A stretch of 35,433 nt of DNA from Methanobacteriota archaeon. Lineage in GTDB: Archaea; Thermoplasmatota; Thermoplasmata; RBG-16-68-12. The DNA is taken from assembly GCA_005878325.1 (NCBI GenBank), contig VBMR01000135.1, positions 1 to 35,433 of the forward strand, in the 5' to 3' direction. The notes beneath the pieces were generated by a model. It was not told where the DNA came from. It was given only the letters and a program-made list of their open reading frames with translations, and did no database searches. The stretch's first letter is position 1. Each line of letters begins with the position of its first letter. This document shows, in pieces, positions 5,514-28,929 of the stretch. The translations under genes were made by a program, and so were the position numbers.

Positions 5514-8286
5514 CGTGTCCCGTCTGATCGTCCGTCGTGTTGTCGTTGTTGAAGTCGCGCTCGAGGCCCGATCGGAGAGTCGTCTCGACCCAGTCGGGGA
5601 CCGTATCGAGGTCCGTGTCGGCCGCGGACACATACGTTCGGGACCGCGAGGTGGGGATGTCCTGGCCTCCGAGGATTCGGCCGTCGACTCGGACGTATCC
5701 GGTGAAATTCGTTCCCACATCGACCGCGGTCGCAAGGATGTCGACGTTGGCGTTGTACTCCAGCGCACCCGTCCGGTTCGTCACGTCGCCGAGGAAGTCC
5801 TGGCCGTAGGTCCGGCCTTGCCAGTCTCCAAACGCGCCGTCGATCTGGAGGCTCGTTGGCGCCGAAGCGAGATACACGAGCCCGATCTCGGGCGATCGGA
5901 AGCTCGCGGTTCCGTTGGAGGCGAGCCCGTCGACCGATAGGCCGAAGGTCGAGGTGGCGGTCATGTTGGTCCAGGAGGCTTCGACCCACAGAATCGTCGG
6001 AGAGGAGATATCGCGGTCGACCGGGAGGCTGGCGGTCGTCCCCGTCATGGGCACCGTCGAGAGAAGGGCATCGGCCGGATCGAAGTTTCCGCTTCCGTCA
6101 TCTCGATACACGGACAGGTCGACGGGGTCGGTGGAACTTCCAAGCCGTGTCACGTTCAGGGCCGTGGCATGCGGGATCCCTCCGAGCGGATCGAGCGTCA
6201 CCCGGAGGATCGCGGTTCGGCCCGTCACCACATCCGGGGCAACGGTAGCCTGTTCGACGATGAGCGTCGGGAGGGAGGCCCGCACCGATCCATCGGCCGG
6301 GTCGCGGTTGCCCAAGTTGTCGGCCGCATAGGTGAGGATCCGCGCGTTCGCAGGATCGGCCACCGTCATTCGCAACTCGAGATCTTGATTGCTGAACGCG
6401 GCATCGGCGGAACCACCTGGAATGAACCGAGACCAGTCGTTCGATCGCGGGCCGCGGGACGCGTCGAATTCCAACGCGAGCACGCCGTGCTCGATCGAAC
6501 CGAGCTGGGACCATCCGAACACTTCGACCGCGGAGTCGGCGCCAAGGTCCCCGATCGGATAGCCGGTCAAGCGGTTCGCGTCCTGGTCGACGAAGACGAA
6601 GACGCTATCCGTCTCGTTCGGAGAGGCGCCGTCGAACAGGAGGCCCTGAACTCTCGCGTTCACGAACAGATCGTGGCCCTGCGTCGCGACCTTCGTCGCG
6701 AGGAGGTTCACTGCGGGGTTCTGGATCTGGTCGATGGGCGAGTCCGCGTACGCGGGGATCGCCGCCCAGTCGCTGAAGTCGCCATCGATTCGAATCAGGG
6801 CAGAGGGACCCGCGGGGGACGGGGAGAGGATGCTCGCGAGGATTGGGACGATGAGCATCAAGGCGACGACCGCCGCGATGCCCGTGACGGATCGGGACCA
6901 GTGGGGCTGGGCCGGGATCCGGGGCGCCGCGGGGCCACTCCGTCGTCCGTTCGTGAACCCGTTTCCGTTGACGAGTCCATTTGTCGCCCCGCGACCGAAT
7001 GTGAGGCCGTTCACGCGACCTTCTGATACGCCATTGACCCGGCCGTTCGTGCGGCCGTTCACGTGGCCATTCGTCCGGCCATTGACCCGACCGTTGGTGC
7101 GGCCGTTGGTGTATCCTACGGTACCGAGGCCAGGGGTCCCAAGGCCGCTCGAACGGAGACCGGTCGCCCCCGATCGGAGGGACCCTTCCTCCGCCCGGGC
7201 CAATTGCTCCGCCCGGTCACGGCTCGCGCGTGCCTCGTCCGTCCGGCCCAAGCGCTCGAGGATTTCCGCCTTCGTCTGCCAGGCCACGACCAGGCTCCCG
7301 TCCGCCTTGAGCAGAGAGTCGTAGTGGGCGAGCGCGTCGAGGAGGCGGGGATCCAGCTTCGCCGAGGGCGCGGGGGATGAAGTCGCCGCGGGCTGCTTCC
7401 ACCGCGGCGGGAGGACGGAGGCATCCCCGGTCGTCCGCAGGAGGTTCTGGACCTCCAACCGGTACTCCTCGTCCCGCGCGGGGTTCAGTTCCGCCGCCTT
7501 GGCGAGGGACTCGACGGCCTCCTTCGGGCGGCCCAACTTCTCGAGCACCTTCGCGCGGTTCGCCCAGGCCCGTTCGAGCGACGCATCGGCTTCGAGGAGG
7601 CGGTCGAAATGGTCCAGCTCTTCCCGGAGGCGGTCCGCCTCTGCGATCGGCGAAACCGGTTCGGCCATCCGCTGCCACCGGGTAAGGAAGTCTTTCACGA
7701 CGGACTTGCCCGCGGGGGTCACCTCGGGCCGTTCCGCGATCGGGCTCCCGCAAATCGCGCATTCCGACTCGTCGGAGAAGAGGTACGCTCCACACCGCGG
7801 ACAGAAGGGCGCGGAGTCATCGAGAGAGGCGTCGAGTCCGGGCAGGAGGGCCAACTCCTCGGCCGTGTATCGTCGATGACAGATCCCGCAGGTCGTCGCG
7901 TCCTTCGTCATCGCAGCGCCGCAGGTCTGACAAATGCGCGGGGGTTGGTCCGCCTCCTTCAGGAACTGATCAAGGCCCTCCGAGAGATCGTCCTCCGGAG
8001 ACGCGTCGAACTCGACACCGCAGAAGGGGCACGCTCCCGCCTCCGTCCCGACGAAGGAGCCGCATTTCGGACACAGGAACAGATGATTCGACTCCTCGCC
8101 CGCTCGGCCGAGGAGTCCGAGGATGGACTCGATGTCCTGCGGGGTCAGGCCCTCGACCGACGCGAGCTGTTCCCGCGTCGCGGACCGCAGCGCCTCATAG
8201 GTCGGAAAGCGTTCCGCGATCCGACGGGCCCGCCCGAGATCGGAGCCGGGAATCGAACTCAGCCATTCGAGATAGCTCTCGTCCAT
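5149..8286 (-). CDS. Large surface/adhesin-like protein, N-terminal reading frame (HhH, three zinc ribbons, TPR, NGRx repeats, TM helix, extracellular region). Genuine coding appears to end near 5467, where the frame shifts.
   Basis: The ORF translation shows these elements in order: an HhH-like stretch SIPGSDLGRARRIAERFPTYEALRSATREQLASVEGLTPQDIESILGLL; zinc ribbons CPKCG..CPFCG, CQTCG..CGIC and CPRCG..CAICG; TPR-like helical repeats; (NGRx)n repeats; the TM helix VTGIAAVVALMLIVPILASIL; and then a long Asp/Thr/Gly-rich extracellular sequence ending in DVDGDGQVDHPDGTGD. The last ~105 codons (RGVVRRVRAALRVRL...) look non-coding. Confidence 0.7.
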   Translation of the reverse strand: MDESYLEWLSSIPGSDLGRARRIAERFPTYEALRSATREQLASVEGLTPQDIESILGLLGRAGEESNHLFLCPKCGSFVGTEAGACPFCGVEFDASPEDDLSEGLDQFLKEADQPPRICQTCGAAMTKDATTCGICHRRYTAEELALLPGLDASLDDSAPFCPRCGAYLFSDESECAICGSPIAERPEVTPAGKSVVKDFLTRWQRMAEPVSPIAEADRLREELDHFDRLLEADASLERAWANRAKVLEKLGRPKEAVESLAKAAELNPARDEEYRLEVQNLLRTTGDASVLPPRWKQPAATSSPAPSAKLDPRLLDALAHYDSLLKADGSLVVAWQTKAEILERLGRTDEARASRDRAEQLARAEEGSLRSGATGLRSSGLGTPGLGTVGYTNGRTNGRVNGRTNGHVNGRTNGRVNGVSEGRVNGLTFGRGATNGLVNGNGFTNGRRSGPAAPRIPAQPHWSRSVTGIAAVVALMLIVPILASILSPSPAGPSALIRIDGDFSDWAAIPAYADSPIDQIQNPAVNLLATKVATQGHDLFVNARVQGLLFDGASPNETDSVFVFVDQDANRLTGYPIGDLGADSAVEVFGWSQLGSIEHGVLALEFDASRGPRSNDWSRFIPGGSADAAFSNQDLELRMTVADPANARILTYAADNLGNRDPADGSVRASLPTLIVEQATVAPDVVTGRTAILRVTLDPLGGIPHATALNVTRLGSSTDPVDLSVYRDDGSGNFDPADALLSTVPMTGTTASLPVDRDISSPTILWVEASWTNMTATSTFGLSVDGLASNGTASFRSPEIGLVYLASAPTSLQIDGAFGDWQGRTYGQDFLGDVTNRTGALEYNANVDILATAVDVGTNFTGYVRVDGRILGGQDIPTSRSRTYVSAADTDLDTVPDWVETTLRSGLERDFNNDNTTDDQTGHDVDGDGQVDHPDGTGDRGVVRRVRAALRVRLCHRRHRTEWGRQLERPLCVRPRSSGAMELRPGRPLRVGRPSPRIRDQRHDPGSPIRLRGRVRCIGLAPRVRCGVAGCGRSPLRRRGPSGD
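6943..7110 (-). repeat. Coding 12-nt tandem repeat giving about 14 NGRx tetrapeptide units
   Basis: The protein reads TNGRTNGRVNGRTNGHVNGRTNGRVNGVSEGRVNGLTFGRGATNGLVNGNGFTNGRR. On the DNA the ccgttcac/ccattgac/ccgttggt units recur every 12 nt. Confidence 0.85.
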
Positions 8287-24325: not shown

Positions 24326-25717
24326 CTATGCGGCGAGGAGGTCGGACCGAATCTCGGGGTCCTTCTCCCACGGGGCCCTCAAAGCGGTCGCGAGGGCGGG
24401 AGGCTCCATCTCCAGGAGTGCCCGGAGCAGCCGGGCCTTCCGGTACCCGTCGGAGGGATCGCCGATGCCTCGGAACGCGGGAACGCTGGTAAGGAAGAAC
24501 TTGGGCGGCATCTCGAGGCCATACAGGCGGGCGTACGTTCGCTCGATCACCGGATGGTACGGCGCGTGGGAGCCGACGACCCACCCACCGAGACCGAGTC
24601 GGAACAGCGCGACCTCATACGCGACAATGTCAGGCATGATCCAATTCCACGCGTCCTCGCCTTCCAGGTCGTGTCGCTGCTGGCAGAACCGGCAGGTGAA
24701 GATCAGGTGGGTGCCGGGCCGCCATTCGACCCGAGTCCGGCGGAAGCACGCCGGGCAATGGACCCAGAAGGCGGAGGCTTGCGAATCCCTCTGGTAAGGT
24801 TCCACCCCCTGTGCGACCTGCTCCTTGGTCACGTCCGCCTTTGTCGCGGTCACGTCGGCGGCGCGCTCCGCCAGCGTGGTCAGCTCCGGGCGAAGCAGGT
24901 CCGTCAGCTCCCTCATCGGGAGGAATACGATCCGGCTCGCCTCGTCGCCGAGCATCCGCTGGAACAAGTCGTGCTGGACCCGGATCAGCCAGTCCCCGAA
25001 GCTCTCCACCGCCGACGCGGCGAGCTTCATCATCTGGAACAAGTCGTCGAGCCGCACGGTAATGGTTTCCTTGGCCTTCGGCAGGACCTTCTGTCCCTCC
25101 TTCTTTTCGTGGGCGAGGTTGTTCTCCACGAATGCCTCGATTTGATCCCGGAGGGCGTCCAGCCCGGAATCAGTAGGTGGAGGAAGCCAGCGGAAGGGGG
25201 TGTTCGCGTGAGCCTTCCCGACCTGCACCTTCGGGGGATGCTTCACGTCGTCCGGCGACCCGCCCTTCAGCGGGGCCCCAAACCGGAGGTTCTCGGGCCG
25301 CATGGCGGGGGAATAGTGGTTCCCGATCAGGTAGAGGGTGAGCGCGTTCGAGTCGCGCATCGCGATGTCGTGGGCCTTCAGGACGAGCCGGACGATGCCC
25401 AAGTGGGGGAGCTGGCCGTCGTGGGCCATTTCGATCAAGAGCGTATTGGGATCCGCGACCGCGTCGAGCATCCTCCGGGTGGGTCCGTCGGCGGGAAGAC
25501 CCAGGCGACCCTTGTAGAACTCTTCCGTGAAGCGCGCAAGATCGCGTCGGCGGTCTTCGAAAGGGAACTTCTTCTGGGCGAGCCGGTGGTAGCCGCGGCA
25601 CATCGTTGCGGCGTCCCGTTCAATGACGAAGGGGTCTTGTCGGCCCCCCGTGGTAGGCGGACGGAGCGGACTCGGAATCGTCGCGATACTTCCCGATACG
25701 GCTTCCAGGCAACCCAA
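24326..25717 (-). CDS. Hypothetical protein with an embedded CxxC-x17-CxxC zinc ribbon; possible very distant BshC/UPF0747-like fold
   Basis: The translation is protein-like throughout. The zinc ribbon is HCPACFRRTRVEWRPGTHLIFTCRFCQQ. I recognise no confident family. The start is uncertain: TTG at 25717 or ATG at 25603. Confidence 0.6.
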   Translation of the reverse strand: MGCLEAVSGSIATIPSPLRPPTTGGRQDPFVIERDAATMCRGYHRLAQKKFPFEDRRRDLARFTEEFYKGRLGLPADGPTRRMLDAVADPNTLLIEMAHDGQLPHLGIVRLVLKAHDIAMRDSNALTLYLIGNHYSPAMRPENLRFGAPLKGGSPDDVKHPPKVQVGKAHANTPFRWLPPPTDSGLDALRDQIEAFVENNLAHEKKEGQKVLPKAKETITVRLDDLFQMMKLAASAVESFGDWLIRVQHDLFQRMLGDEASRIVFLPMRELTDLLRPELTTLAERAADVTATKADVTKEQVAQGVEPYQRDSQASAFWVHCPACFRRTRVEWRPGTHLIFTCRFCQQRHDLEGEDAWNWIMPDIVAYEVALFRLGLGGWVVGSHAPYHPVIERTYARLYGLEMPPKFFLTSVPAFRGIGDPSDGYRKARLLRALLEMEPPALATALRAPWEKDPEIRSDLLAA

Positions 25718-25829: not shown

Positions 25830-26615
25830 CTAGGTCATGCAACAGCGGGGGCTCTCCCAGAAGTCCAGGCCGAGACGGACCAGCGTGGGATCCGTCGACG
25901 TGATGGCATAGGCATCCCCATCCGTCGTCCGGGACACCGTGAAAACCTGTTGCCCGTCCACGACGAGGAGGACGCAGGAACACACGATCGAACGGACTTC
26001 CGCGACCTTCGCGAGTTCTCGGGGAATCCCAATCTCCGGAACGGCGATCCGGAGGCGAATCCGTCGACGCACGATTCGCATGAGTTCGTCCTCGAGCTGC
26101 CGGAACAGGGGCTCATCGGATGTCAGGAGGACGATGTCCTTCCGGGCGGAAGCAATCAGAGCCTTGGCCCTCGTCACGACATTCGTGAAGCCTTTCACGA
26201 TGTACGCGATCTCGGCCACGGGGGCGACGGTGCCTGCGCGGAGCGGCTCCAACAGAGAGGCCACGCGGACGGTCGCGGCTTTTCGACGCTCATAGTCTGC
26301 CTGGATCAGATGGGACAACCGGAGCTCAACCTCACCCGCGGGGACCACCCGATAGATCTTCGGCTTCCCCGGTTGAACTTCGACCAAGCCCTTCTCGACG
26401 AGTTCCCCGAGGGCGTAGTAGATCTTCGAGTCCGGAATCCCGGTCTTGCCGACGAGGTCCCCCGCCGTTGCCTGCGGCAACCGAACGAGGGCACAAAACG
26501 CGGTGGTGGCGTTACCACTCAAGCCCAACTCCCTCAGGGTCGCTCCGATTCGATCGAGGGAGGGGGCGAACGACTCCTGCAGCAGGGCATTCGCGCGGAC
26601 CTTCGCTCCCGACAA
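25830..26615 (-). CDS. TrmB-family transcriptional regulator ending in a CC pair
   Basis: The N-terminal wHTH is TAFCALVRLPQATAGDLVGKTGIPDSKIYYALGELVEKGLVEVQPGKPKIYRVV, followed by a coiled-coil segment and a TrmB-like C-terminal domain. The C-terminus reads FWESPRCCMT. Confidence 0.8.
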   Translation of the reverse strand: MSGAKVRANALLQESFAPSLDRIGATLRELGLSGNATTAFCALVRLPQATAGDLVGKTGIPDSKIYYALGELVEKGLVEVQPGKPKIYRVVPAGEVELRLSHLIQADYERRKAATVRVASLLEPLRAGTVAPVAEIAYIVKGFTNVVTRAKALIASARKDIVLLTSDEPLFRQLEDELMRIVRRRIRLRIAVPEIGIPRELAKVAEVRSIVCSCVLLVVDGQQVFTVSRTTDGDAYAITSTDPTLVRLGLDFWESPRCCMT

Positions 26616-26638
26616 CTGGGAGAGGGAGGAAGGCAGCC

Positions 26639-26645
26639 TATTTGA
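26639..26645. promoter_or_regulatory. Single TATA-like element (tatttga / tcaaata) between two divergent start codons
   Basis: It lies ~27 nt from the TrmB TTG start (26615, minus strand) and ~20 nt from the peptide ATG (26662, plus strand). This is the only AT-rich patch in the spacer. Confidence 0.4.
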
Positions 26646-26661
26646 ACTTGTCTCCTACTTC

Positions 26662-26796
26662 ATGGAAGTAGATAACATGGATCCGTCCCAAGCGTCGGAC
26701 CGACCGCGGGAGCAGACGCCGCCGACCTCAGCGGACCGCGGTGCCTGCAACGCGTGTTGCGCGTCCTCCTGCTGCGCCTGTTGCTGCTGCGGTTAG
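26662..26796 (+). CDS. 44-aa Cys-rich micropeptide (9 Cys in the last 16 residues)
   Basis: My own translation gives MEVDNMDPSQASDRPREQTPPTSADRGACNACCASSCCACCCCG*. It has its own TATA-like element upstream, a second in-frame ATG at 26677, and a hairpin 19 nt after the stop codon. It sits in a 288-nt gap otherwise free of genes. Confidence 0.5.
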   Translation: MEVDNMDPSQASDRPREQTPPTSADRGACNACCASSCCACCCCG

Positions 26797-26815
26797 AGGA
26801 CCAACTTCCTTCCTA

Positions 26816-26838
26816 GGAGGCGCCCGCGGAGCGCCTCC
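26816..26838 (+). terminator. GC-rich hairpin (8-bp stem ggaggcgc/gcgcctcc, 7-nt loop) followed by a pyrimidine-rich tract
   Basis: Read directly: ggaggcgc ccgcgga gcgcctcc, followed by cctctttctcagtctcgtttcg. Confidence 0.4.
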
Positions 26839-26903
26839 CCTCTTTCTCAGTCTCGTTTCGGCCGAGAAGCTCAAGTGGAGCGGCAACCCTGCGTGGCCGG
26901 CAT

Positions 26904-27365
26904 ATGGCGACGAATCCCCCTCGGACCGCCTGCTACTTCGACGGCGCATGTCCGCGGAACCAATTCGGGACGAAGGGTCCGATGAAGGCGGCGTACGTCG
27001 TGGATGGCGTCGGAACGGTCCGCGACGTGGACGACCTTGAGACGTCCACCGGACGAATTCGAAGCAACAACGTCGCAGAGTACCAGGCGTTGATCCTCCT
27101 GCTCGACCACCTGCGCAAGAGGGACCAGGCGCTCGCCGCCCGCGGGCGATATCGGATACACGGCGACTCTCAACTCGTCGTCCGCCAGATGGTTGGCGAG
27201 TATCGGGTGACGCAACTGCACCTGCAGATGCTTCATGCAAAGGCGACGGATCTCGCCGCCGTCCTCGACGTCGAATTCCGATGGATCCCCCGGGGCGAGA
27301 ACCCGGCGGGACGCCTGCTCGAAACGAAAAATCGGCGCGACAAGAAAGCCACCAGGGAGAATTGA
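26904..27365 (+). CDS. rnhA: Type 1 ribonuclease H (RNase HI)
   Basis: CYFDGACPRNQ...NNVAEYQALILLLDHL...IHGDSQLVVRQMVGEY...FRWIPRGENPAGRLL matches the D-E-D-D RNase HI motif order (FDGA, N.AEY.AL, GDS.L, W.PR..N..A). Confidence 0.8.
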   Translation: MATNPPRTACYFDGACPRNQFGTKGPMKAAYVVDGVGTVRDVDDLETSTGRIRSNNVAEYQALILLLDHLRKRDQALAARGRYRIHGDSQLVVRQMVGEYRVTQLHLQMLHAKATDLAAVLDVEFRWIPRGENPAGRLLETKNRRDKKATREN

Positions 27366-27419
27366 ACTCCCGACCTGCCGCTTACAAGGCGGCTGCTCTA
27401 CCGACTGAGCTATGGTGGC
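27347..27419 (-). tRNA. tRNA-Thr (anticodon UGU), no intron, CCA not encoded
   Basis: Folded by hand: GCCACCA UA GCUC AGUCGGUA GAGC A GCCGC CUUGUAA GCGGC AGGUC GGGAG UUCAAUU CUCCC UGGUGGC plus discriminator U. All four stems are Watson-Crick paired. Confidence 0.9.
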
Positions 27420-27452: not shown

Positions 27453-27549
27453 TTTCCTCGCTTTGGACACCGGGAGTCAACACGAAAAGTCTCATTTTCG
27501 GAAATCAAGGAAAAGGCTTTATTCGAGCCACCCGGCCTCGGCAGCCCGC

Positions 27550-28929
27550 GTGAGCGGTCTCCCGTGTCCAAACTGCGGTAGCGAGTTGGCGCTCCTCGCG
27601 CAATACCAACGGCACTATTGCTATGCTTGCGGGAAATACGCGCCGGAAGGCTTCGGAGACCGAGGCGCGAAACGATGCCCGACCTGCACAGGCATCCTGT
27701 CCTACGTCGTCCAGTATGATCGGTACTATTGCTACCGTTGCAACGCCTACCCACCCGAGGGCGCGTTCATGGAGTCGCCGACTCCGACCGGTTCACAGAC
27801 GGCCGCGGAACCGGCGACCAGTTCGACGGCCCTGGTCGTCCTCGAACCCGCGAGCTCACAGGAGCCGGCCGCCAGCATGGCCTCGGTCGAATCGCCGCAT
27901 TCCGGCGGGCAAGCCGTAGAAGAGGAGATCCGACCGGAGGGGACCGGACCGCAGAAATCGAAACGCCCGCTGGACCGGGAGGAAATCACGACGGCAAAGA
28001 AGCCGCTCCTGATGGCATTGTGCAGAGACTACGATCTCGACGCCGATGGCACTCGGGAGGAACTCCGCCAGCGATTACTGAGCTACCTCGATCAGCTCGA
28101 AGGACCGAGTTCGTCAGAGGCTCCGGTCGAGACATCTGCGACGGAGGAGCAACCGTTTTCGGAAGAGACCGAGTCGCAGACGGTCGCGTCTGCCTCTTCG
28201 GAGGAAGAGGGGGTCCGTGAGGGGCCAGTCGAACGGGCTGAGCCAGAGGTCGTCGAATTACCGGAGGAAGGACACCCGTCAGGCCCGTCAACTTCGACGA
28301 GCACCTCCACGGTCGAAACACACCCCATGGAGCCGATGCGCGAGACGTTCGACCAACCCGCGATCCCCGCAACTCCTTCCCGCGAGCCGACCCCAATCGA
28401 AGTCCCGGTCCACCCCACGGCGAGGGTGGAGCATCCATGTCCGACATGCAGTCGGGCCCTCACATTCATCCAACGATATGACCGCTGGTACTGCTATTCG
28501 TGTCGCGCCTACGCGCCGCGCACGAAAGCGAAATTCGCGTGTCCGAACTGCGGCGCATCCCTCCGATGGATCATGCAGTATAGCCGGTGGTGGTGCGACG
28601 CCTGTCGTCGATACGCCCCGGCGGACCTGCCGAAGCCCGAGCAAGCCGCGGTCCAGACGGCTCCGGCCCAAGCTGTCACCCCACGAACGTTCGCGGGGAC
28701 GGCGGCCGTGCATCGCCACCAAAGCCCCGGAAGCGGGATCGGCCTGGTCACCTTCGGATTGCTCTTGTTCGTTATGTACGAGGTCCTCGTCGATCTGCCG
28801 ATCGTCCTGTCCGTGAATACGGGACTCGATGTCGCGCCGGACGTCGCCTTCGGCCTCCGCTTCTTCGCGTTCCTTTTCGTCGCGATTGGCGCGATTCTGG
28901 GCTTGACAGCGATTCGGGACCGGCGCTGA
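27550..28929 (+). CDS. Membrane-anchored protein with four copies of a CPxC..QYxR[YW][YW]CxxCxxYAP zinc-ribbon repeat, a SAP motif, acidic/Ser-Pro linkers and two C-terminal TM helices
   Basis: The repeats are CPNCGSELALLAQYQRHYCYACGKYAP, CPTCTGILSYVVQYDRYYCYRCNAYPP, CPTCSRALTFIQRYDRWYCYSCRAYAP and CPNCGASLRWIMQYSRWWCDACRRYAP. The SAP-like segment is LLMALCRDYDLDADGTREELRQRLLSYL. The TM helices are GIGLVTFGLLLFVMYEVLVDLPIVL and FGLRFFAFLFVAIGAILGLTAI. The preferred start is the GTG at 27550, ~28 nt after a tttatt box. The track ORF begins at 27463. Confidence 0.7.
   Translation: MSGLPCPNCGSELALLAQYQRHYCYACGKYAPEGFGDRGAKRCPTCTGILSYVVQYDRYYCYRCNAYPPEGAFMESPTPTGSQTAAEPATSSTALVVLEPASSQEPAASMASVESPHSGGQAVEEEIRPEGTGPQKSKRPLDREEITTAKKPLLMALCRDYDLDADGTREELRQRLLSYLDQLEGPSSSEAPVETSATEEQPFSEETESQTVASASSEEEGVREGPVERAEPEVVELPEEGHPSGPSTSTSTSTVETHPMEPMRETFDQPAIPATPSREPTPIEVPVHPTARVEHPCPTCSRALTFIQRYDRWYCYSCRAYAPRTKAKFACPNCGASLRWIMQYSRWWCDACRRYAPADLPKPEQAAVQTAPAQAVTPRTFAGTAAVHRHQSPGSGIGLVTFGLLLFVMYEVLVDLPIVLSVNTGLDVAPDVAFGLRFFAFLFVAIGAILGLTAIRDRR

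Follow-up and report, generated by a model that had tools for sequence, protein, structure and literature searches.

The DNA considered here is a 35,433-nucleotide (nt) stretch, contig VBMR01000135.1 of assembly GCA_005878325.1, from an archaeon of the Thermoplasmata; the whole of it is referred to below as the window. The subject of this work is a very short gene for a cysteine-rich peptide, located in a 288-nt gap. The gap is bordered on one side by a TrmB-family regulator gene on the minus strand (25830..26615) and on the other by an RNase HI-like gene on the plus strand (26904..27365). A preliminary description, made from the sequence alone, had reported in this gap an open reading frame (ORF) of 44 codons with nine Cys among its last 16 residues, together with two in-frame ATGs, a TATA-like box and a downstream hairpin. 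The translation matches and all of these elements are present in the sequence. Comparison with related archaeal loci suggests that the gene is what remains of an operon that also carried an arsM-like gene.

The peptide gene, its relatives and its promoter region

The features of the locus, with positions given on the window, are the following:

25830..26615, minus strand: TrmB-family transcription regulator gene, 261 amino acids (aa), TTG start, divergent from the peptide gene; matches to PF01978 (E = 2e-16, 59.8 bits) and PF11495 (E = 2e-10, 40.7 bits)
26639..26646, no strand assigned: TATA box TATTTGAA of the divergent promoter; distances of ~27 nt to the start codon of the regulator and ~35 nt to the ATG of the peptide gene
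26652..26671, no strand assigned: palindrome resembling an operator, CTCCTAC-TTCATG-GAAGTAG, for which the consensus is CTACTAC-N6-GTAGTAG; placed between TATA box and start codon
26662..26796, plus strand: Cys-rich ORF as first reported, 44 aa, MEVDNMDPSQASDRPREQTPPTSADRGACNACCASSCCACCCCG followed by the stop codon
26677..26796, plus strand: probable true coding sequence of the peptide, 39 aa, MDPSQASDRPREQTPPTSADRGACNACCASSCCACCCCG followed by the stop codon; the sole Met of the relatives maps to its start
26743..26793, plus strand: Cys-rich core ACNACCASSCCACCCCG, with nine Cys and the motifs CC, CxC and CCCC
26816..26848, plus strand: terminator-like hairpin GGAGGCGC-CCGCGGA-GCGCCTCC (stem-loop 26816..26838) followed by CCTCTTTCTC, found in a terminator scan

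The second in-frame ATG of the reported ORF is at position 26677. The corresponding ORFs of the relatives have a single start codon each, equivalent to this ATG, and the first ATG (26662) falls in the spacer of the palindrome, which is itself conserved. For these two reasons, the product is most likely 39 aa long, and not 44 aa as described initially. Its frame is free of internal stops and frameshifts, and its product contains nine Cys (23%), which constitute 56% of the 16-residue core, and no Phe, Tyr, Trp or His. Small size, high Cys content and few aromatic residues or His are among the features by which metallothioneins are recognized, and all of them are found in the 39-aa peptide, whose orthologues have 8–12 Cys.

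Since direct protein searches with the peptide came up empty, the neighbouring regulator was used as the anchor to find relatives. Exact look-ups of the 44-aa and 39-aa products returned no record, a word-index homology search with the 44-aa peptide gave zero candidates, and phmmer gave 0 hits against 1.84 billion cluster representatives. Pfam and NCBIfam contained no match to the window peptide or to the class A and class B variants defined below, no peptide-only genes are present in the public protein sets, and gene callers passed over the ORF on five near-identical contigs. The genome set, with one genome per species, comprised 40 Thermoplasmata loci (related loci carry L numbers) whose regulator is 53–78% identical to that of the window. 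A class A ORF was defined as a short ORF with a Cys-dense C-terminus, directly upstream of the regulator and divergent from it, as in the window. Such an ORF, with intact start and stop codons, lies beside the regulator in 12 of the 40 loci, that is, in 12 other species. A metagenome scan added 76 usable loci, 37 of them class A, which encode 22 distinct peptides with 8–12 Cys each. The expectation in the preliminary description that a real gene would keep its place next to the TrmB gene is therefore borne out, by 12 genomes and 37 metagenome contigs.

The way in which these genes have diverged points to a translated product. In eight distinct class A genes of 37 aa, the nine Cys codons vary at 1, 1 and 3 sites in the first, second and third codon positions, respectively, and the other 27 codons at 14, 9 and 17 sites. 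All four Ala codons are in use at Ala20 and three Pro codons at Pro6, and Cys33 is encoded by TGC and TGT in a 4:4 ratio, so that the Cys codons are preserved by synonymous TGT/TGC changes, as had also been anticipated. In more distant class A members the N-terminal half is heavily substituted, with the frame, the start, the stop right after the Cys run and the Cys count all retained; a simulation of neutral drift at the divergence of the N-terminal half gave a probability of 3e-4 for keeping at least eight Cys. Each of the 22 class A and 20 class B peptides has CC, CxC and CCCC motifs; the number of Cys is conserved and their positions shift. Finally, a six-frame scan of the window and the 40 loci (~430 kb) placed every ORF segment with at least seven Cys in 16 residues at the peptide locus, upstream of the regulator gene.

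This substitution pattern is that of a translated peptide selected for its Cys, and not that of an opposite-strand or purely DNA-level feature. Conservation on the opposite strand alone, named at the outset as a result that would speak against the gene, is ruled out by the coding pattern in the peptide frame. Rfam was empty on 26560..26960 even at a permissive threshold, so no known non-coding RNA accounts for the conservation. Judged from these comparisons, the ORF is a genuine protein-coding micro-gene, above chance expectation.

The control region is conserved to a similar detail. An alignment of the regulator-proximal 105 nt of 36 loci, with and without arsM, aligned the TATA block (TATTTGAA, TATATAA or TATTTAA) in all of them, in a fixed order: regulator start codon, ~27 nt, TATA box, ~5 nt, palindrome, and then ATAAC-ATG. 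The palindrome, with conserved half-sites and a variable spacer, is found with one mismatch at most in 38 of the 40 genome loci, in a single copy each, at about -57 relative to the start of the regulator. In the window it has two mismatches to the consensus and is unique within the 35 kb (0.07 matches expected in shuffles); further copies that would mark other regulon members were sought there and none was found. It would look like the site of a dimeric winged-helix repressor overlapping the transcription start. Separately, in L028:782-801 the palindrome stands at a second regulator paralogue of the same metagenome-assembled genome (MAG) as L024, with no arsM, Cys-rich ORF or nearby ATG behind it. 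Given the usual archaeal spacing between TATA box and transcription start, the ~35 nt from TATA box to ATG predict a 5′ untranslated region of less than 10 nt and hence a near-leaderless mRNA; no Shine-Dalgarno (SD) sequence precedes the peptide ATG in the window.

At the other end, the hairpin begins 20 nt past the peptide stop codon. Its fold energy is -19.4 kcal/mol, with a z of just -1.4 against shuffles when taken alone, so that its support comes from the relatives: there the hairpin and T-run recur, the stems being partly different and the T-run invariant, and a consensus fold of 11 sequences has 10 pairs, four of them with changes on both sides. The peptide unit thus looks like a self-contained transcript of roughly 170–180 nt.

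Sister loci with arsM and descent of the window locus

Of the 40 Thermoplasmata loci, 27 have an arsM-like gene that is divergent from the regulator, is preceded by the TATA box and the palindrome, and has its ATG where the peptide ATG lies in the window. Its product is an S-adenosylmethionine (SAM) methyltransferase of 239–242 aa whose best matches are arsenite methyltransferases (NCBIfam NF008823, E = 1e-68, 231.6 bits; Chlamydomonas ArsM, PDB 5evj, E = 7e-29; Cyanidioschyzon ArsM, E = 1e-22). The enzyme retains the SNCVINL cysteine, the C-terminal catalytic cysteine and an N-terminal CC, and in Thermoplasmata it has an additional CxC (DDCGCV) beside the C-terminal catalytic Cys. The association with the regulator extends well beyond this class, since 22 of 40 distant loci, belonging to Bathyarchaeia, Atabeyarchaeia, Heimdallarchaeia and Thaumarchaeota, have arsM near the regulator, divergent in most cases.

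In many arsM-bearing Thermoplasmata loci arsM is immediately followed by a Cys-rich ORF of 33–37 aa, here called class B. It starts after an 8-nt gap or with a 4-nt overlap, has an SD-like GGxGG and often uses a GTG start. A typical class B peptide is (M)IPMEITLAKALAEDLRGEGCCGGATCCGGDCCTCGG, and another example is MIPMEITLAKALAEDLRGEGCCGGATCCGGDCCTCGG; they consist of a short amphipathic N-terminus and a CCGGxxCC...C core, and the metagenome set contains 20 distinct versions with 5–8 Cys. A profile search of 5.8 billion proteins, with the window ORF as the first sequence, recovered only 12 unnamed clusters, all of them class B. In a protein alignment, the cores of the two classes share the pattern G-CCGxxxCCxxxCCxCxG with the stop directly after it. 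In the sister lineages the peptide gene abuts the arsM-like gene behind the same promoter and operator and may thus belong to an ars operon, although the enzyme scores just under the NCBIfam cutoff; in the window itself arsM is missing.

The relation between the two arrangements can be followed at the nucleotide level. By blastn, the class A core and stop align to the class B core and stop (L009 124-186 versus L012 843-905), the promoter blocks of the two types of loci are collinear, and so are the downstream flanks, at equal distance from the stop. On this threefold collinearity, class A is a deletion derivative ~715 nt shorter, in which nearly all of arsM has gone and its start region has been joined to the peptide core. 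The reach of the regulator–arsM pairing into distant archaea indicates in turn that the presence of arsM is ancestral and the state of the window derived. The peptide gene had first been taken as stand-alone; comparison with the sister loci makes it instead the remainder of an arsM–peptide operon. Its N-terminal half, which had been called leader-like with the leaders of ribosomally synthesized and post-translationally modified peptides (RiPPs) in mind, is no such leader: it occupies the place of the arsM 5′ end.

Homology of this half, in the window clade, to the ArsM N-terminus was also considered and was dropped, the positional equivalence of the ATG being kept: a hidden Markov model of 15 class A leaders, searched against all ORFs of 21 arsM-bearing loci, gave nothing significant, and its best match (E = 0.27) was not ArsM. 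A suggestive likeness is seen in another clade, between MNDKNEAEP in L022 and MNAGNEAIH of the ArsM in L045.

Loss of arsM with retention of the peptide has occurred more than once. In L026 and L040 the whole of arsM is lost and a class B-type peptide with its own SD and GTG start lies directly behind the operator. In L022 and L029 a class A gene is found in a different flanking synteny, with a 176-aa gene downstream as in the arsM-bearing L021, L041 and L088, and in a neighbour-joining tree of the regulator the peptide-only loci are spread over several clades. This repeated retention argues for a role of the peptide that would not depend on an adjacent ArsM. Taken together, the sequence comparisons give firm ground for the reality of the gene, the selection on its Cys, the synteny, the operator and the descent from an arsM operon.

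Regulator-linked arsM operons of other archaea also contain thiol or redox helpers. In Bathyarchaeia and Asgard archaea, CMD/AhpD-like CxxC proteins of 99 aa are present (L056:5575-5874(-), L062:5571-5876(-), L076:5204-5503(-)), in the same operon. A rhodanese gene after arsM and genes for nitroreductase, Asp-protease and flavin reductase are further helpers of this kind (L038:4734-5174(-), L044:3876-4310(-); L075:5311-5904(-), L075:2840-3400(-)). Some Bathyarchaeia have after arsM a Lys/Glu-rich mini-ORF with two CC pairs, for instance MSEKSRKKTEKRSNCCDTEQKKTSCC (stop-to-stop ranges L072:701-874(-), L075:3525-3632(-), L082:3598-3843(-)), which is apparently an independent small vicinal-Cys partner of ArsM.

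Regulator, and proposed ligand and function

The regulator has the PF01978 winged helix and the TrmB effector-binding domain that define the TrmB family. Its PF11495 match spans just positions 3–119 of 233, so that the sugar-binding lobe is apparently absent, and its scores are far under the NCBIfam equivalog cutoffs for TrmB, TrmBL1 and TrmBL2. It contains Cys212 and a C-terminal pair, Cys258–Cys259 (...SPRCCMT). Unlike the other Cys, these three, the pair within the motif ...(S/N)PxCC, are near-invariant in the homologues compared, 46 from Thermoplasmata and 39 from other archaea. Arsenic sensors and chaperones such as ArsR and ArsD usually bind As(III) with three thiolates. In the literature, no link of TrmB-family proteins to arsM or arsenic was found, and the Cys-triad proteins may represent an undescribed class of arsenic- or thiol-responsive regulator. 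Regulators of 250–265 aa with the Cys triad also occur near an arsM-like gene in loci between L006 and L085, mostly at ~6001-6780. The window regulator gene is also met on contigs from soil metagenomes and in MAGs of Thermoplasmata, which assigns the window to an uncultured soil archaeon of this class. The closest precedent for sensing through cysteine thiols in a TrmB-family factor is OxsR of Haloferax volcanii (PMC9426492). OxsR, however, is a single winged helix-turn-helix (wHTH) protein with one N-terminal Cys and a CG-rich motif (PMC9426492), whereas the window regulator has 261 aa, the N-lobe of the TrmB effector domain, Cys212 plus the C-terminal CC, and a CTACTAC-N6-GTAGTAG site.

The favoured reading, held with moderate confidence, is that the gene encodes a metalloid-inducible, metallothionein-like thiolate peptide that would bind As(III) and that remains from an arsM operon. 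Since the gene appears to be the remainder of an arsM–peptide operon, arsenite or another soft metalloid is the likely ligand rather than copper, to whose small fungal metallothioneins the peptide had at first been compared. Another soft metal would do equally well as the ligand, and a redox role is just as conceivable. We infer that the peptide is translated, and likewise its inducer, its ligand and its stoichiometry. In the proposed mechanism, As(III) or another soft metalloid or metal would bind the Cys triad of the regulator, which would then leave the operator and allow the peptide to be made. The nine peptide thiolates would chelate As(III), typically with three Cys per As. Where ArsM is absent, as in the window, the peptide would buffer or sequester the metalloid; in ArsM-bearing relatives it would hand As(III) to the enzyme, as chaperone or reductant, in place of glutathione conjugates.

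The chemistry of known arsenic proteins gives this proposal its shape. In characterized ArsM enzymes, thiol transfer is the route by which As(III) arrives from As(GS)3; a thiol reductant is needed, and the catalytic disulfides have to be re-reduced in each cycle (PMC6138428); the arsenic chaperone ArsD works through vicinal Cys pairs (PMC4562236). It is this thiol-transfer chemistry, together with the thiol and redox helpers of the other archaeal operons, that suggests a poly-thiol ligand of As(III). A wider proposal, which is offered tentatively, joins the parts into one module: a TrmB-family repressor that would sense As(III) through Cys212 and the CC pair, the CTACTAC-N6-GTAGTAG operator, and a poly-thiol peptide that would carry As(III) to ArsM instead of glutathione and that would have outlasted repeated arsM loss as the first, arsenic-specialized archaeal metallothionein.

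Several known systems resemble parts of this module. Metallothioneins, which are polyphyletic and include small fungal Cu-metallothioneins and the mycobacterial MymT, are likewise tiny and Cys-rich, with CC, CxC and CCCC motifs, Gly/Ala/Ser spacers and no aromatics or His. As in them, selection acts on the Cys count more than on exact positions, and a Cys-bearing regulator is apparently in control. The peptide differs in being archaeal, in having no homology to the curated families, and in an ancestry that points to arsenite and not to Cu or Zn. These archaea are assumed to lack glutathione. A poly-thiol peptide could present As(III) to ArsM in the same chemical form as glutathione or phytochelatin conjugates (As(GS)3 being the known donor; PMC6138428), although the peptide is ribosomally encoded and the conjugates are synthesized enzymatically. 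ArsD of Escherichia coli R773 is also a small cytosolic protein encoded in an arsenic operon; it binds As(III) at vicinal Cys pairs and delivers it to a partner protein (PMC4562236, PMC6138428), as the post-arsM peptide would do. However, the peptide has neither homology to ArsD nor a thioredoxin-like fold, its partner would be a methyltransferase and not the ArsA ATPase, and in the window the partner gene has gone. No arsA was found in the peptide contexts and no match to the ArsD family, so that only the vicinal Cys pairs are shared with ArsD. The ArsM fusions of NCBIfam (NF041537 ArsM_AhpD_UU and NF041536 ArsM_DUF2284_UU) join an arsM-type methyltransferase to a small module with a thiol or selenol pair; the present module is instead an unstructured peptide of 33–40 aa with a gene of its own, which in the window survives without the enzyme.

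It is important to note that a number of observations weigh against an arsenic-binding peptide. The NF008823 score of 231.6 bits is just short of the 263-bit cutoff, and the Thermoplasmata ArsM-like enzymes (L012:5211-5939(-) and 24 others) all have GSGNP and not GCGNP, the equivalent of Cys72 of CmArsM being gone, whereas the Bathyarchaeia and Asgard versions still have GCGNP. Owing to this score and this missing Cys, arsenite methylation by the arsM-like enzyme is to be taken as unproven. No genes for an efflux pump, an arsenate reductase or ArsR were found near the peptide and regulator loci, and no homology to curated metallothionein or ArsD families was found in Pfam, in NCBIfam or by phmmer against the 1.84 billion representatives. 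The Cys positions in the core shift among lineages, and slippage of TGC repeats could have contributed to the retention of Cys. The window-clade N-terminal half does not resemble ArsM N-termini to a statistically significant degree, and the Cys triad of the regulator, by analogy with OxsR (PMC9426492), could sense oxidants or other metals instead.

Among the alternatives, the one that survives best, although unlikely, is that the peptide would bind or buffer some other soft metal (Cu(I), Cd, Hg or Zn) as a metallothionein does, or would act as a sacrificial thiol in oxidative stress, with a regulator that would sense that metal or the redox state. CC, CxC and CCCC motifs with Gly/Ala/Ser and no aromatics are a generic metallothionein composition, OxsR offers a thiol-based, redox-sensing TrmB-family precedent (PMC9426492), the partner genes in other archaea are of redox or thiol type (CMD/AhpD-like CxxC protein, rhodanese, flavin reductase, nitroreductase), and there are no classical ars genes nearby. 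On the other hand, across phyla no gene other than the arsM-like one is consistently co-regulated with the peptide, and the architecture of OxsR, a single wHTH domain with one N-terminal Cys, is a different one.

A rather improbable alternative makes the peptide a dedicated thiol/disulfide partner of ArsM, either as reductant of its catalytic disulfide or as a substitute in trans for the missing Cys72-equivalent, which in the window would serve an arsM elsewhere or be on its way out. The tight coupling of the two genes (4-nt overlap or 8-nt gap) would fit such a partnership, as would the absence of the GCGNP cysteine from all the Thermoplasmata ArsM-like enzymes, the disulfide reduction required in every catalytic cycle of ArsM (PMC6138428) and the ArsM fusions with AhpD-like 'UU' domains listed in NCBIfam. 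What it does not explain is that several lineages, by different deletions, keep the peptide after the loss of arsM, with selection on the Cys continuing.

It is very unlikely that the ORF is a non-functional relic, that is, a fused remnant of the arsM deletion or a chance open frame. Stops are rare in this GC-rich DNA, where a number of other frames of the region stay open too; moreover, no gene caller predicted the ORF, and it did arise by deletion. Nevertheless, an ORF with 8–12 Cys has been kept across a regulator divergence down to ~55–78% identity, changes in Cys, Ala and Pro codons are nearly all synonymous, the simulation rejects neutral retention (P = 3e-4), the terminator directly after the ORF is conserved, and segments with at least seven Cys in 16 residues occur in ~430 kb of related DNA solely at this locus.

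There is little to recommend a Cys-sensing leader peptide, in which ribosomes stalled on Cys codons at scarce Cys-tRNA would alter the hairpin and control read-through into the next gene. A near-leaderless ORF ending in a Cys run, with a hairpin and T-run 20 nt past its stop and a gene 108 nt downstream, does recall the mycobacterial poly-Cys leaderless short ORFs that act as attenuators (10.1101/834739), which are also short, probably leaderless and followed by an RNA hairpin. But the peptide gene is not 5′ of cysteine-metabolism genes. The downstream gene varies and has no sulfur role: the window clade has an RNase HI-like gene there, L022 and L029 have the one for the 176-aa protein, and L026 and L040 have genes for membrane proteins. 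In the arsM operons of sister lineages the peptide gene comes last; its amino acid sequence is under selection, with non-Cys residues also conserved at the protein level and varying synonymously, and an alternative anti-terminator pairing was looked for and none was seen.

A RiPP precursor (of azoline, thioether or thioamide type) whose Cys core would be modified by enzymes encoded elsewhere is barely credible: the leader-plus-core appearance and the adjacent methyltransferase gene of the relatives recall one, but that methyltransferase bears the arsenic-binding Cys signature of ArsM, the 'leader' is entirely different among lineages, and genes for YcaO, cyclodehydratase, lanthionine synthetase (LanB/C/M), radical-SAM or MNIO (DUF692) enzymes are absent from the window, as the preliminary description had said of the maturases that it named, and from five other contexts, giving six independent contexts; L001-L005 and L086-L090 likewise carry no maturase. 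With no maturase nearby, the metal- or redox-binding reading that it had preferred to a RiPP is upheld as the better option, and the As(III)-binding peptide is the form of it favoured here.

Neighbouring genes and biological meaning

The rest of the window consists of genes for glycosyltransferases, methyltransferases, proline dehydrogenase, and TPR and Zn-ribbon proteins. The last 19 nt of the RNase HI-like ORF downstream of the peptide gene are overlapped on the opposite strand by a tRNA gene, and the true RNase HI stop or ORF end may lie elsewhere. The neighbouring features are:

26904..27365, plus strand: RNase HI-like gene
27347..27419, minus strand: tRNA-Thr(TGT) gene
24326..25717, minus strand: ORF of 463 aa downstream of the regulator, with no Pfam or NCBIfam match
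27463..28929, plus strand: 488-aa protein with several zinc-ribbon motifs, a SAP-like segment and a hydrophobic C-terminal region

This tRNA-Thr gene and one 5S rRNA gene are the only Rfam and ARAGORN features of the window. The 463-aa ORF is conserved among the relatives solely in L006 and is therefore placed outside the conserved module. The 488-aa protein is syntenic with a 338-aa protein across the clade. In a second Thermoplasmata clade, a protein of 176–185 aa (MAKKFDPRSVGV...FKGFDxVEAV...) without Pfam match follows the peptide gene, with or without arsM (L021:4530-5060(-), L041:4632-5189(-), L088:8156-8686(+); also downstream of the peptide in L022 and L029).

Peptides rich in Cys that bind metals or metalloids are already familiar, and it is the regulator and operator context of this one that appears to be undescribed. 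No description of an archaeal metallothionein-like protein was found in the literature searched, and no name or homologue of the peptide family in Pfam, NCBIfam, the 1.84-billion-protein library or the same literature. It is reasonably likely that the module as a whole represents a new type of response to arsenic. If so, the Archaea would gain their first metallothionein-like protein, together with a new class of arsenic-responsive regulator that uses a TrmB scaffold and whose conservation reaches from Thermoplasmata as far as Bathyarchaeia and Asgard archaea. The module would also explain how thiol-bound As(III) is supplied to ArsM in organisms assumed to be without glutathione, and, these Thermoplasmata being common in soils, it would be relevant to the methylation of arsenic there. 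The history of the locus illustrates, in addition, that an internal operon deletion can create a functional micro-gene that gene callers miss.

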